A stretch of DNA of 64,000 bases. It comes from Chloroflexota bacterium (GTDB lineage: Bacteria > Chloroflexota > Dehalococcoidia > Bin125). The translations under genes and the position numbers were made by a program. The stretch covers positions 81,920 through 145,919 of the forward strand of contig JAPPFB010000017.1 in assembly GCA_028875225.1 (NCBI GenBank), written 5' to 3'. This document shows, one piece after another, positions 3,940 through 9,012 of this stretch; within the stretch, counting starts at the first letter, position 1; each line of letters begins with the position of its first letter. The notes below the pieces were generated by a model. The model worked only from the letters and a program-made list of their open reading frames with translations. It ran no database searches and was not told the origin of the DNA.

Positions 3940-4752
3940 TTGGGATCCGGCCCGATGACACTCCGAATCGCCTGGTTCGCGACCGCCAGGGGCACGAGTT
4001 CGCGCAAGTTGCTCCACGCCGCGAACGACGCAATTCGCGACGGCCGACTGGACGCGGAGATCGTCTGCGTCGTCTGCAACCGGGTCCGCGGCCAGTCAGC
4101 CAACACGGACCTGTTTCTCGACGACGTCGAGCAGGCCGGAATCCCCTTGATCTCCAACAGCTCGCTGGAATGGCGTCGACGCGTAGCCGGCGAAATCTCG
4201 GTGCCCGGACAAGAACTCGCTTCCTGGCGGCGCGACTACGACCGCCATCTGTTCGAGCAAATCCGCGAGCACTCGCCCGATGTGGCAATGCTGGCCGGAT
4301 ACATGCTGGTCATCACCGACGTCATCTGCGACCACCTGCCCTGCCTCAACCTCCATCCCGCCCTCCCGGACGGGCCGATCGGCACCTGGCAGCAAGTCAT
4401 TCACGAACTCATCGCCCAGCGAGCGGACCGATCCGGCATGGTCCTGCAACGCGTGACCACGGAGCTCGACCGAGGTCCAACCGTCACCTGGGCCGAGTAC
4501 CCCATCCGCGGACCCCTGTTCGATCCGCTCTGGGCCGAATACGGCGACGACGCCGAATCCGAGACCCCGCTCTTCCACGCCATCCGCGAAGCCGGCGCCA
4601 GCCGCGAGCCCGCCTTCATCCTCCAGTCCCTGCAGGCAATCGCCGCCCGGAGCTCCGCTTCATCCACATCGCTCGCCGCATCGACCGGGGACGAGATAGG
4701 CTCGGACCTCACCGCAGAGGTCGAGTCGGAGATGAAGCGGCTAGAGATCTGA
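3940..4752 (+). CDS. Formyltransferase-family protein (PurN-like fold, divergent)
   Basis: Aligns by eye to PurN: RIAWFATARGTSS, PDVAMLAGYM, LNLHPALPDG (Asn/His of the NxH motif retained), TTELDRGP (Asp retained); extra C-terminal tail. Start may be ATG at 3955. Confidence 0.6.
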   Translation: MGSGPMTLRIAWFATARGTSSRKLLHAANDAIRDGRLDAEIVCVVCNRVRGQSANTDLFLDDVEQAGIPLISNSSLEWRRRVAGEISVPGQELASWRRDYDRHLFEQIREHSPDVAMLAGYMLVITDVICDHLPCLNLHPALPDGPIGTWQQVIHELIAQRADRSGMVLQRVTTELDRGPTVTWAEYPIRGPLFDPLWAEYGDDAESETPLFHAIREAGASREPAFILQSLQAIAARSSASSTSLAASTGDEIGSDLTAEVESEMKRLEI

Positions 4753-4827
4753 CCCTCGTGTTATGTCAACTGTGGACGCTGTGAGTAATTGTTTACGTGT
4801 GTAGTCCGATAACTATATGATGCCGTC

Positions 4828-5124
4828 ATGACCGATCCGGATCTGCCGGTCCTGACTCCGACCATTGTCGAGCCGCGCTCGAACGGCCACGTGAACGAGT
4901 TGCTGCCCGCGATCCGTGAGGATTTGGCCCCATTCCTCCCCGCCTTGCGCAGCGCCGCGCAACTCATCGCGGCCGCCACCGTGCTTGAGTTCACCGCTCG
5001 CTATGCTGCACCAGCGATGATTGACCAGGTTCGACAGATCATCGCCCCGGCGCCCCAGCACAAGCAAACGATCCTGGTCGAGGAACAAACCACTGTTCGC
5101 CGTCGCGTTACGGTCGTTTCCTAA
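4828..5124 (+). CDS. Hypothetical 98-aa protein; high GC3 coding signal; may belong to the downstream LTD gene
   Basis: Strong third-position GC bias in this frame up to 5124; preceded by an AT-rich segment at 4760-4827; no recognisable domain. Confidence 0.4.
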   Translation: MTDPDLPVLTPTIVEPRSNGHVNELLPAIREDLAPFLPALRSAAQLIAAATVLEFTARYAAPAMIDQVRQIIAPAPQHKQTILVEEQTTVRRRVTVVS

Positions 5125-7471
5125 ATCTCTGGTTCCGCTCACGCTCACGATTCTCCTGTTCCCGCTTGCTAACCAACCCGGTTCCATCCATGCGTCGCAC
5201 AATCCCCGCTTGGTGATCAGTGAAGTGCATCCAAACGTTGCCGCCGACGGCTCGTCCTGGGATTCGTACGAGTGGATCGAAATCCACAATCTCGAACGCC
5301 ATCCGGCCAACCTGGACGGCTGGATCATCGAGGACGCCCAGTCCATCGCGCCGCTTCCTGACATCGAGCTGCCAGCGGGCGGCGCCGTGTTGGTCGCTGG
5401 CAGCGCCGCCGACATCGAGGTACCTTCGGGCAAGACTCTGATCATCCTGGACCGTCCGAGGATCGGCACCGGTCTGCGCAATGCCGGCGACCGGGTGGCG
5501 CTGATCAATCCGTACGGAGTTCGCTACGACGCCGTCAGTTGGGGAGACGTGCGCTGGCCGCGCGCCAGCGAGCCGCCCAATCCGCGCCAATCGATCGTCA
5601 GAACTTCCACTGGCGGGCAGTCGTTGTCGGACCGATTGACGCCCTGGACCGTCGGCGAAGCGATCAGCGCGGCACCGGACCGGCATCGCCATCCACTTCC
5701 TGAAACGTCGGTCCGGATGGTCAAGGCGCTCATCGATCCCGGCGAAGGCGACTCGGAGACGCTCACGATTCGCAACCTCTCCGATCGCCCACTGATCACT
5801 GTCAACTGGACGCTGACCGTCAACAACTCCCTGATCACGCTGCCCTCGGTCCGAATCGAACCCGGCGTGTCCTACGACATCCGAGAGGCGGATGGCACAC
5901 TGGGCGCCGGCATATCCAGCGACGGCGGCCATCTGGTCCTCCGAGACAGCAGAGGCAACTGGCTGGCGACCGCCAGCTGGGGCGACGACCACACGTTTCA
6001 CAAGATTCCTCCGCCCGCGCCCGGGCAGGAGTTGCGATTCAATCCGTTCGCGAGGATTCACCCGCGCGTCCCCTGGTTCGACGTCGATCGCGAAGACAGA
6101 CTCATGGTTGGTCGGGGTCGGGGGACGAAGTCACTGCTGGCTTCCAGCATTAGCTCTCTGTCGCTGCGCGAACATCACCGTGCGAGCCCACACCAGGATT
6201 CCGATCGAGCGCCGATCTGGATCAGCGAGGTCTACCCTAATGCCGGGCAGGGCAGAAGTGACGCCGCGCATGAGTGGTTTGAATTGACCAACTCCACCGA
6301 ATCGCCACTGCAGCTCGATGAGTGGTCAATCGCCGACAACACCTCCGCCGACTCCCTCGACGGGGTCACGATTCCACCAGGCTCATCCGTCGTCATTGGC
6401 GGCGCCGCGCAGGCTGATTCAGGCGTCGTGGCCGCTATCGAAGACGGTCGAATCGGCAATGGCCTGGCCAACAGTGGGGACCAACTCCGGCTGATCAATC
6501 CGGCCGGCGAGGTGGTCAGTGCGATCAGCTGGGGCGACGACCGGTCGTTCGACGCGATCACTGCGCCACAGCCCGATGAGTCGCTGCATCGCGAGTCGCC
6601 ATCCGACATCCCGTTCCTCGGCAGACCTTCGCCCGGGATGTTGACCGTGTCTCCGACCCCGGCGCCGGCGCTTACCAATGTCGAAACGCCGACAGCGCCG
6701 GCCGGTCAGGACGATCTGCTCGATTCCACGCAGCCTGCGCAAACAGAACCGTCGATTGCCCCGGTCATCGACGAAACCCTGCCGGTGCTGATGATCACCG
6801 AAATCCTGTCTGCTCCGTTGCCGGGACAACCGGAGTGGGTTGAGATTCACAATCCAAACGAGGAGTCTGTCGATCTCAATGGATGGACAATCGGCGATCC
6901 GCAACGACGAACGGCGTTGCACGGCACCATGACCGCCGGTTCCTACGTCGTGGTCACCACCCAACCGCTGGAGTCGGATGTCGATACCATCGTCGTCGAA
7001 CGGATTGGCAACGGTCTCAACAATGACGCCGACTCCATTGCCATCTTCACTCCAACTGGACGCGTCGTTGACGAAGTCAGCTACGGACACGGTGAGTTGC
7101 CTGCTCCTGATCGAGGACTGTCGATCGCATTGGATCCCGAGCGCTGGGTCGTCACGGCATTGCCGACTCCCGGTGCAGCCGATGTCACTCCGCTCCTGGC
7201 AGACGCCTTCCGTTCTGCCGCTCCGAAAGCTCCGATTTCCGATGAGGGTCGCCTGCCGCTGGTGAGCGCAGAAGCGGACGCCGGCGTGAATGCCTGGATG
7301 ATCGTGAGCTTCGCTCTGATCGGCGTGATCATCACCCTGGTCGTCCGTCGCGTCCAGCCCGACCAGGTACAGCCGGAGGCGACGGTTGAGGCGAGCCACT
7401 ACTCCGGGCCGGACGCTGTTTCAGCGTCCTCAGTGGACCCCGAGGAACACAATGATCCGACGAGAACATGA
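5021..7471 (+). CDS. Surface protein with three lamin-tail domains and a C-terminal TM anchor
   Basis: Three LTD (PF00932-like) units: LVISEVHPN...EWIEIHN...LDGWII...NAGDRVALINPYG (about 5210-5560), IWISEVYPN...EWFELTN...LDEWSI (about 6220-6540), LMITEIL...EWVEIHNP...LNGWTI (about 6790-7100); C-terminal hydrophobic AWMIVSFALIGVIITLVV. The 5' end is uncertain: the 5021 ATG frame has poor GC3 until about 5125 and overlaps the upstream ORF. Confidence 0.7.
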   Translation: MTRFDRSSPRRPSTSKRSWSRNKPLFAVALRSFPKSLVPLTLTILLFPLANQPGSIHASHNPRLVISEVHPNVAADGSSWDSYEWIEIHNLERHPANLDGWIIEDAQSIAPLPDIELPAGGAVLVAGSAADIEVPSGKTLIILDRPRIGTGLRNAGDRVALINPYGVRYDAVSWGDVRWPRASEPPNPRQSIVRTSTGGQSLSDRLTPWTVGEAISAAPDRHRHPLPETSVRMVKALIDPGEGDSETLTIRNLSDRPLITVNWTLTVNNSLITLPSVRIEPGVSYDIREADGTLGAGISSDGGHLVLRDSRGNWLATASWGDDHTFHKIPPPAPGQELRFNPFARIHPRVPWFDVDREDRLMVGRGRGTKSLLASSISSLSLREHHRASPHQDSDRAPIWISEVYPNAGQGRSDAAHEWFELTNSTESPLQLDEWSIADNTSADSLDGVTIPPGSSVVIGGAAQADSGVVAAIEDGRIGNGLANSGDQLRLINPAGEVVSAISWGDDRSFDAITAPQPDESLHRESPSDIPFLGRPSPGMLTVSPTPAPALTNVETPTAPAGQDDLLDSTQPAQTEPSIAPVIDETLPVLMITEILSAPLPGQPEWVEIHNPNEESVDLNGWTIGDPQRRTALHGTMTAGSYVVVTTQPLESDVDTIVVERIGNGLNNDADSIAIFTPTGRVVDEVSYGHGELPAPDRGLSIALDPERWVVTALPTPGAADVTPLLADAFRSAAPKAPISDEGRLPLVSAEADAGVNAWMIVSFALIGVIITLVVRRVQPDQVQPEATVEASHYSGPDAVSASSVDPEEHNDPTRT

Positions 7472-8271: not shown

Positions 8272-9012
8272 GTGACACGCTCCTCCAGTCCGGATTGTCG
8301 AAATCAACTAGTCGCGATCGACGGGCCGGTCGCCTCCGGCAAGACCGCTGTCGGCCGGGCCCTGGCGCAGCGCCTGGGCTGGCGGTTGTTCGACACCGGA
8401 ATCATGTATCGCGCCGCGACCTGGCAAGCACAGCGCAAGGGCGTCCATCTGGACGAAGAGGACAGCGTCACCGAGCTGATTCGCGCATCGGAGTTTCGAT
8501 TGACGCCGAGAGCAGACAGCGACTCGATCGAGATGGATGTCTTCGTCGACGGCGACGATGCCACGCCGCACCTGCGCCAGCCCGAGGTCGAGTCCGTGGT
8601 CCCCATCGTCGCCGCCAACGCCGGCGTGCGCGTGCTGATGGTCGCGATTCAGCAGTCGGAAGCCGCGCAGGGCTGCATGATCGTCGTCGGCCGAGATATC
8701 GGCACGGTCGTCCTGCCCGACGCCCCGGTCAAAATTTTCCTCGACGCCAGCGAGGAGGTCCGTGCCAGGCGGCGGGCCGCCGAGCAGGATGGTGGCGCCG
8801 ACGAAGCCGCCGTGCTCAAGGCGACCCAGCGTCGCGATCGTCGTGACCGCGGCAGAGCCGCGTCGCCGCTGACGGTGGCTGCTGACGCCGTCCGGCTGGA
8901 CACTTCAGACCTCACGCTCGAACAGGCGATTGTTGCCACCGAATCAATCGTTCGAGAACGAATGCCCGAGCTGACCCTGCAACAGGCAGCCACACCCGTG
9001 CAGCAGAGATAG
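8272..9012 (+). CDS. cmk: Cytidylate kinase
   Basis: P-loop VAIDGPVASGKT; FDTGIMYRAATW; GTP start as in the track. Confidence 0.88.
   Translation: MTRSSSPDCRNQLVAIDGPVASGKTAVGRALAQRLGWRLFDTGIMYRAATWQAQRKGVHLDEEDSVTELIRASEFRLTPRADSDSIEMDVFVDGDDATPHLRQPEVESVVPIVAANAGVRVLMVAIQQSEAAQGCMIVVGRDIGTVVLPDAPVKIFLDASEEVRARRRAAEQDGGADEAAVLKATQRRDRRDRGRAASPLTVAADAVRLDTSDLTLEQAIVATESIVRERMPELTLQQAATPVQQR

Follow-up and report, generated by a model that had tools for sequence, protein, structure and literature searches.

Where does the lamin-tail-domain protein begin? Out-of-frame overlap with a small conserved gene and a putative Sec-type signal peptide in Dehalococcoidia

A contig of a Chloroflexota bacterium of the class Dehalococcoidia (assembly GCA_028875225.1, contig JAPPFB010000017.1) carries a gene for a protein with three lamin-tail domains (LTD), and the locus raises the question of where this gene begins and how it relates to the 98-amino-acid (aa) open reading frame (ORF) directly upstream of it. 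We analyzed 64,000 nucleotides (nt) of the contig, positions 81,920 to 145,919, referred to here as the window; coordinates below count from its first nucleotide. An earlier, sequence-only reading of the locus had questioned the annotated start of the LTD gene and had listed a frameshift, an overlapping gene and a non-ATG start as explanations. Our preferred answer, to which we give a probability of about 0.85, is that the locus holds two separate, conserved genes that overlap out of frame, with the LTD start inside the small ORF and an export signal encoded in the spacer that follows it. The elements on which the argument depends are these.

4828 to 5124, + strand: small conserved gene of 98 aa (about 94 aa in relatives), with an ATG start and a TAA stop at 5122-5124
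5021 to 5023, + strand: TTG, a candidate LTD start giving a 104-nt overlap and a 35-aa n-region rich in Arg and Lys; the only canonical LTD-frame start upstream of the signal-peptide core in the window
5080 to 5085, + strand: Shine-Dalgarno (SD)-like GAGGAA, made by the invariant Glu-Glu codons of the small ORF
5093 to 5095, + strand: CTG, a candidate non-canonical LTD start giving a 32-nt overlap, 8 nt (5085-5092) past the GAGGA core at 5080-5084
5125 to 5212, + strand: annotated intergenic spacer, coding in the LTD frame, with a predicted h-region SLVPLTLTILLFPLA (5126-5170) and c-region NQPGSIHA (5171-5194)
5192 to 7471, + strand: predicted mature LTD protein, with a first lamin-tail domain at about 5192-5545, two more such domains, a transmembrane helix near the C-terminus and a tail of about 40 aa
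5213 to 5215, + strand: GTG at which gene callers begin the LTD protein in L001 and L003 (752-aa product)

The L-numbers denote individual orthologous loci, and offsets such as -46 or +89 are counted from the last base of the small-ORF stop. Altogether 44 Dehalococcoidia loci were read. Many counts rest on 33 related genome loci, all of them labelled Chloroflexota or Dehalococcoidia metagenome-assembled genomes (MAGs). Ten loci were added to these, two from a metagenome scan and eight from exact-protein look-ups, the latter giving extra loci of what is called clade 1 below.

The small gene and the sequence downstream of it

Re-reading of the window confirmed that the 98-aa ORF ends in TTVRRRVTVVS before its stop and that the LTD gene is read in the +1 frame with respect to it. 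Among 5.8 billion proteins searched, relatives of the small protein form 45 clusters, 63-98% identical to the query and 85-141 aa long, most of them 94 aa. In the alignment of these proteins the C-terminus QTILVEEQTTVRRRVTVVS is nearly invariant, and nearly all members end in RRRVTVVS at one conserved stop. None of the 45 clusters is fused to an LTD protein and none has a Pfam domain; searches of the small protein against Pfam and NCBIfam, and of its fold against the PDB with Foldseek, gave no match. On comparative grounds the small ORF is a real, independent gene family with a conserved length and a conserved stop. AlphaFold2, run on the small-protein alignment, predicts one long helix spanning residues 20-72 and, toward the C-terminus, a beta-hairpin formed by 80-84 and 92-96; the mean pLDDT is 74.6. 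The RRR motif is thereby placed in a conserved hairpin of the small protein and not in the n-region of a signal peptide. The sequence-only reading had taken this RRR for the n-region of an export signal split by a +1 frame change, a view that finds no support in view of the independence of the small family, the absence of fusions and L028, described below, where the LTD gene has a separate ATG.

The LTD protein matches PF00932 in three stretches (E=6e-53; 178.3 bits against a gathering cut-off of 34.3), in agreement with the three domains first proposed. The first domain covers profile positions 2-108 and begins at about nt 5192, upstream of GTG 5213. Near the other end of the protein a transmembrane helix at 7289-7345 (hydropathy 2.34) is followed by RR and then by the tail of about 40 aa, and with this topology the N-terminal part must be exported. 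The LTD frame is open from 5021 and reads KSLVPLTLTILLFPLANQPGSIHASHNPRLVISEV right after the small-ORF stop; set out by segment, the reading past the stop is K-SLVPLTLTILLFPLA-NQPGSIHAS-HNPRLVISEV. The LTD gene lies directly downstream of the small ORF in 33/33 genome loci and in the +1 frame in 32 of them, and the ten added loci have the same downstream arrangement. Counted from the small-ORF stop, LVISEV, the motif at the opening of the first LTD domain, lies 89 nt away in 28 loci; in four the interval is 98 nt, and in one it is 155 nt. When the LTD ORFs were read from just past the stop, all 34 examined were intact (769-809 aa); thus no locus is a pseudogene.

The exceptional frame belongs to L028 (OZ220495.1, 4283-4400), the sole species with the LTD gene in the frame of the small ORF. 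Here the LTD gene has its own ATG directly after a TAG stop, its N-terminus reads MAWLLAVALAFALLLPGHTRLALS and onward, with an uncharged n-region (MAWLLAV...), and remnants of a TTG at -46 persist in the now-closed +1 frame. On the evidence of this locus, the two proteins are separate products. More generally, orthologs carry two separate conserved overlapping genes, so that the idea of one split ORF does not hold.

The 28 loci with an 89-nt spacer were used for statistics on the spacer itself. Stops are absent from the LTD frame in all 28, and occur in 5/28 and 21/28 loci in the other two frames. The mean maximum Kyte-Doolittle hydropathy over 12 aa is 2.61 in the LTD frame vs -0.03 and 0.34 in the others, and a hydrophobic stretch is present in the LTD frame of every aligned locus (28/28), with a 15-aa core in the window, within the 7-15 residues or so typical of a Sec h-region. 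Nucleotide diversity at codon positions 1, 2 and 3 of the spacer is 0.44, 0.29 and 0.51, in the same order as in the adjoining LTD domain (0.35, 0.29 and 0.45). Signal-peptide features were judged by rule, from hydropathy and the residues at -3 and -1. By these rules a signal-peptidase I cut is predicted between Ala 5192-5194 and Ser 5195-5197; at -1, before a conserved S/T-H-N-P, 26/28 loci have Ala and one has Gly, and the residue at -3 is I, V, A, T, L or S. Arg or Lys precedes the h-region in the LTD frame in all loci. There is no conserved RR in this frame before the h-region (the window has A-L-R-S-F-P-K, where Arg occurs once, and relatives have SRSFLE, ASRLFLE or GLRFSLS), and a twin-arginine translocation signal, of the form S/T-R-R-x-F-L-K, was rejected for lack of the twin arginine. 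These features indicate that the spacer encodes the core and the predicted cleavage site of a Sec-type (signal-peptidase I) signal peptide, and the earlier suggestion of an export signal that takes in the hydrophobic residues past the stop is borne out by the hydropathy and cleavage motif across the 28 loci. Because the spacer is coding, the LTD match begins upstream of GTG 5213 and the topology needs export, comparison marks this GTG as a mis-call that cuts off the signal peptide. The earlier doubt about the LTD start was therefore well placed.

Base composition changes along the overlap. Contrary to the sequence-only reading, in which the strong bias in GC content at third codon positions (GC3) of the small ORF ran up to its stop, GC3 there is 0.83-0.90 until about 4990 and 0.60-0.70 across the last 100 nt or so. 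The LTD frame, said to have good bias after about 5125, does have high GC3 later (0.76-0.86), but this sets in some 130 nt past the stop, values from 5110 to about 5260 being 0.62-0.69.

Taken as a whole, the locus is best explained as a small operon in which a conserved promoter at 4792-4821 drives a probably leaderless mRNA beginning at ATG 4828. Its first cistron encodes the conserved protein of about 94-98 aa and closes with TAA 5122-5124. Overlapping it in the +1 frame, the second cistron encodes a probable cell-surface protein made up of a predicted cleavable Sec-type signal peptide, a set of three lamin-tail domains and, at the C-terminus, a membrane anchor. The core and predicted cleavage site of the signal peptide lie in the 88 nt annotated as intergenic, and the positively charged n-region and the initiation codon would lie within the last 31-104 nt of the small ORF. 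Translation of the LTD cistron would probably be coupled to the passage of ribosomes through the small ORF.

Candidate start codons and their turnover

Because TGA at 5018-5020 closes the LTD frame, the LTD start must fall between 5021 and about 5128. The codon at 5021-5023, previously read as ATG, is in fact TTG; an ATG close by, at 5017, is in the frame of the small ORF. A genuine overlap was among the alternatives first listed, and the comparative data support it, the potential overlap (5021-5124) being 104 nt. They likewise favor a non-ATG start, although not at the place proposed, just after 5124: the conserved candidates are upstream of the stop.

TTG 5021 (offset -103) is present in 5/6 members of the window's subclade. 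L006 has lost it (ATT to ATC) and has gained a TTG at -46 (GTC to GTT), and these are two of about six synonymous differences that separate it from its sister L004. The wider group, clade 1, comprises 15 loci (the window, L004-7, L039, L031, L032, L034, L035 and L041-45) and is essentially monophyletic on the LTD-protein tree. All of its members have GAG GAA/G ... ACC ACT in the small ORF, which in the LTD frame reads GAGGA-N8-CTG (5080-5095). GAGGA(A/G) occurs in 15/15 clade-1 loci and GAAGAR in all 29 other loci; the CTG, which arises from the rare Thr codon ACT (12.5% of Thr codons), occurs in 15/15 clade-1 loci and 0/29 others. TTG at -46 or -49 is absent from clade 1 except for the TTG -46 of L006. 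The product predicted from CTG 5093 is M-FAVALRSFPK-SLVPLTLTILLFPLA-NQPGSIHA/S, where the slash marks the predicted cut. In six species (L032, L034, L035, L041/42, L043 and L045) there is no ATG, GTG or TTG from the opening of the frame to +28, and the CTG is the only start candidate common to them. For the clade-1 species that have no canonical start, the ratio of synonymous to nonsynonymous differences in the segment from +2 to +31 is 66:103 in the LTD frame vs 21:160 and 26:125 in the others, which marks the segment as clearly coding in that frame.

The second group, clade 2, has 28 loci, including the disused remnant in L028, and all have TTG at -46 and/or -49. These TTGs are made by rare codons of the small ORF, either GTT-G or CTT-G; GTT accounts for 13% of Val codons and CTT for 7.5% of Leu codons. 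A switch from the GTT-G to the CTT-G solution has taken place in one subclade (L008-10 and L019), and the codon after TTG -46 is always AAG. L036 has a GTG at -19. Public gene calls are scattered, placing LTD starts at -46, -10, +29, +32, +89 and +104. Comparison of these loci shows that the putative start position has turned over between lineages, among UUG at -46, UUG at -49, UUG at -103 and an SD-like motif plus CUG at -31.

The two clades differ in synonymous constraint. In clade 1, over all pairs, the synonymous rate is 0.14 in the last 17-18 codons of the small ORF vs 0.35 in the rest. For five phylogenetically independent clade-1 pairs there were 14/81 synonymous differences in the last 17 codons vs 98/249 elsewhere, or 2.3-fold fewer (Fisher p=2.4e-4). 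In clade 2, for which 24 genome loci were compared, the rates are 0.39 in the last codons and 0.38 in the rest. The clade-1 pattern fits a demanding initiation context, with an SD and a weak codon. That of clade 2 fits a canonical start with a sequence-tolerant n-region, in which only the TTG itself is held. Between -103 and -52 the synonymous rate in the window's subclade is 0.18 vs 0.38 upstream, and in the sister subclade 0.38 vs 0.48, which is weak evidence for use of TTG 5021 in the window's subclade.

For the window itself the start would be either TTG 5021, at odds somewhat short of even, or CTG 5093, which ranks only slightly behind it, and the two codons may both be used. For clade 1 as a group, a surface protein initiated at a conserved CUG within the 3' end of a leaderless gene, or else, more exotically, an undescribed mechanism of recoding or coupling, is a fair possibility, held with somewhat more doubt than either placement in the window.

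Several points weigh against this account. The choice of start codon comes from sequence comparison within an uncultured lineage, and the signal-peptide features were judged by rule. TTG 5021 implies an unusually long n-region of 35 aa and is missing from L006 and from the whole sister subclade. No SD was seen ahead of it; since SD motifs are found at just 2-3 of 13 called starts in this genome, this is not decisive. The GAGGA/CTG state may be a single ancestral event, in which case its exclusivity amounts to one evolutionary observation plus retention. The model also leaves the conserved rare-codon patch and mini-ORF at 4996-5020, described below, unexplained. Finally, CUG initiates at 1-2% of the level of AUG in E. 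coli (bioRxiv 10.1101/063800).

Alternatives to two overlapping genes

A programmed +1 frameshift near the end of the small ORF, of the prfB or antizyme kind, would produce a fusion with a cytoplasmic domain of 94-98 aa, in which RRR would supply the positive-inside charge and SLVPLTLTILLF would act as a signal anchor. We consider this improbable. It would account for the +1 relation and the 89-nt spacing, conserved in 32/33 loci, for the lack of any one conserved start codon and of any canonical start in six species, and for the constraint on synonymous sites of the last 17 codons in the window's clade. The last sense codon is, moreover, always a Ser UCN followed by the stop, as in the UCC-UGA site of antizyme, but this Ser is a conserved C-terminal residue of the small protein. 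The stop of prfB is invariant, whereas here TAA, TAG and TGA are all used and the next base and the penultimate codons vary (GTT TCC TAA, GTT TCT TGA, CTC TCT TAG, GCT TCC TGA and others); this free variation in stop identity and context tells against the programmed frameshift that the sequence-only reading had listed. The last 50 nt hold no CUU-U-type slippery codon and no conserved shift site or homopolymer run of the kind that permits transcriptional slippage. GAGGA, found in 15/44 loci only, is separated from the stop by 36 nt, whereas a prfB-like stimulator would stand about 3 nt from the shift codon. Clade 2 lacks the synonymous constraint and conserves TTG instead, L028 has its LTD gene in frame 0 with an ATG of its own, and L036 has its GTG at -19. 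The conserved cleavage motif, Ala before Ser or Thr, argues for a cleaved signal peptide and not an internal anchor, and no homologue has a fused ORF. A scan of 4600-5400 with Rfam 15 gave no match at E<=1, and RNAalifold on four sub-regions between -150 and +60 gave -3 to -8 kcal/mol with no convincing conserved helix, both of which count against a frameshift signal.

Just as little weight is given to a non-canonical start slightly past the stop, for example CTG 5129, reached by termination and reinitiation and leaving a signal peptide with almost no n-region. A CTG at +5 is present in the window, L004, L006, L007 and L039, and L028 indicates that a stop-adjacent start with an uncharged n-region can work in the LTD family. 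The CTG is, however, missing in L005 and in all loci of the sister subclade, no SD stands ahead of it, and the synonymous constraint upstream of the stop would be left unexplained.

Less probable still is that the current annotation is right, with the LTD gene starting at GTG 5213 (or TTG 5210), no signal peptide and a non-coding spacer at 5125-5212. Gene callers did take GTG 5213 in two assemblies, and the LTD-frame GC3 of the spacer is just 0.62-0.69, but signal-peptide and 5'-proximal coding regions commonly have low GC3. Against it, all of the coding signatures are present in the LTD-frame reading of the spacer, a start codon at +86/+89, the positions of TTG 5210 and GTG 5213, is missing in about half of the orthologous loci, the LTD match begins before 5213, and an ectodomain anchored at its C-terminus needs an export signal.

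That a sequencing or assembly error, or a frameshift mutation creating a pseudogene, has split one ancestral ORF has nothing in its favor beyond the frame change itself and a probability close to nil: the small protein occurs with identical sequence on three public contigs (one ENA metagenome scaffold and two GenBank MAGs), two of which, belonging to other assemblies of this organism, match the window without a difference throughout 4753-5560, 32/33 genome loci share the frame change, and the small-ORF stop is conserved, the LTD ORFs are intact and fused clusters are absent. Sequencing error is excluded, and of the earlier proposals neither it nor a pseudogene survives.

Upstream signals, neighboring genes and relation to known systems

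Three further features precede or lie within the small ORF.

4760 to 4777, + strand: conserved intergenic box GTTATGTCAACTGTGGAC; most of the 33 genome loci carry a similar stretch at this offset
4792 to 4821, + strand: predicted sigma-70-like promoter, with -35 TTTACG (4792-4797), an 18-nt spacer and -10 TATGAT (4816-4821)
4996 to 5020, + strand: rare-codon patch GCT CGC TAT GCT GCA CCA within the small ORF (codons at 4996-5013)

The stretch before the small ORF is AT-rich, as had been noted (GC 0.45 at 4753-4827 vs 0.644 for the whole window). The predicted promoter was the sole promoter-like match in a scan of 4600-5400 (1 found vs 0.2 expected). When the 75 nt upstream of the small ORF were aligned across orthologous loci, the pattern '...ACTGTATACGCGC...ATAACTATATGAT-N6-ATG' was seen at a fixed distance in nearly all. 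Because the -10 element ends 6 nt before ATG 4828 and no SD was seen ahead of this ATG, the small-ORF mRNA is probably leaderless, its transcription start being placed from the position of the promoter. The box, directly past the stop of the formyltransferase-like gene upstream and ahead of the -35 element, can be written GTTATGTCAA-TGTGGAC, with the variant GTTATGTCAA(A/C)TGTGGAC, and could be an operator or other regulator-binding site.

The rare-codon patch has a GC3 of 0.06-0.21 and very low synonymous variation over 4996-5013, and its motif is present in about 30 of the 33 loci; L015 and L028 no longer have it, and L036 has an altered form. For comparison, background codon use is 0.24 for TAT, 0.14 for GCT, 0.16 for GCA and 0.16 for CCA. 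In the LTD frame the patch forms a 5-codon mini-ORF, ATG CTG CAC CAG CGA TGA (5003-5020), which abuts TTG 5021. In eight genome loci the TGA of the mini-ORF is replaced by a sense codon, mostly TGG, which puts the ATG in frame with the LTD gene. ATG 5003 (-121) was nevertheless rejected as the LTD start, since TGA 5018-5020 follows it here and in most loci; it is also dispensable, as a silent change gives L022 a TAG where close relatives have TGG. An internal sigma-70 promoter at the conserved TATGCT (5002-5007) was likewise rejected, because the scanner gave no hit there and a usable -35 is lacking at a distance of 16-18 nt. The patch might act as a translational pause, as a processing site, or as a device for standby or reinitiation.

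The upstream gene at 3940-4752 has a weak Formyl_trans_N match (E=2e-14) and begins at TTG 3940 in the mechanical ORF and at ATG 3955 according to gene callers; its synteny with the small ORF holds in all of the further loci checked. On the other side, at 7468-7471, the LTD stop overlaps the ATG of an RluB-like pseudouridine synthase gene (ATGA), and the operon probably continues into housekeeping genes (cmk, a plsC-like acyltransferase gene and ispH). The cytidylate kinase gene at 8272-9012 is called as 246 aa (GTG 8272) in one assembly and as 202 aa (ATG 8404) in two others with the same sequence. In L002 (GCA_028874415.1), the equivalent of window positions 5323-5374 has nine mismatches clustered in 52 nt, eight of them G or A to T, in an otherwise identical sequence. 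They split the LTD gene call into pieces of 40 aa and 701 aa, and the cluster has the look of a local mistake in the assembly or consensus of this MAG.

As a class, the locus behaves like an ordinary coupled pair of out-of-frame overlapping genes with a mis-called downstream start, an annotation error that is common. As in other coupled bacterial cistrons, both genes are on the same strand, the downstream start would lie in the 3' end of the upstream gene and GC3 is lowered around the internal start; the pair is conserved in 44/44 loci and the next junction, at 7468-7471, is a classic ATGA overlap. Usual overlaps of this kind range from ATGA up to tens of nt. The overlap here is longer, at 32 nt from CTG 5093, 104 nt from TTG 5021 and 46-49 nt in most relatives, and the start has moved repeatedly while the signal-peptide core kept a fixed distance from the upstream stop. 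This relocation, the fixed stop-to-core distance and a clade in which CUG plus an SD-like motif is the only conserved candidate are the less common aspects of the locus.

Bacterial starts other than AUG, GUG and UUG include the AUU of infC and, rarely, CUG. The near-cognate CUG here resembles such cases in being well spaced from an SD-like motif and in being kept through a rare synonymous codon of the overlapping frame; it differs in that it is a candidate only and that a canonical TTG is also present in the window. The +1 site of prfB (RF2) is CUU UGA C with an SD-like stimulator about 3 nt upstream. The present locus shares with it a +1 change at the end of a short upstream ORF and an SD-like motif upstream. 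It has no CUU-UGA-type site, its stop is not conserved and its SD-like motif is wrongly spaced; the upstream ORF encodes a conserved protein in its own right, and in one species the two genes are unlinked in frame. The defining features of the prfB-type frameshift class were tested and found lacking, so the locus falls outside this class. As in other Sec signal peptides truncated by start calling, there is a 15-aa core and an I-H-A/S motif, with a putative charged n-region, and a downstream start was picked, but here the n-region would lie inside the reading frame of another gene. Leaderless mRNAs offer a possible further parallel, since nearly all loci share the 6-nt gap between the -10 element and ATG and no SD is present; unlike them, the predicted transcript would be polycistronic, and the start of its second cistron would be internal and possibly weak.

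The LTD protein is mis-annotated in public assemblies and is consequently scored as cytoplasmic, whereas it is very probably a secreted, membrane-anchored surface protein. This bears on how the cell surface of these bacteria is read, several of which look sponge-associated from their bin names. A gene finder confined to ATG, GTG and TTG cannot recover the conserved N-terminus in at least six species. The locus offers a clean natural example of start-codon turnover within an overlapping frame and a directly testable candidate for conserved CUG initiation. If that candidate is true, it would be a case of evolutionarily maintained, natural CUG initiation that has replaced an ancestral UUG, helped by an SD-like GAGGA drawn from Glu-Glu codons, and in six sister species CUG would be the sole start available.

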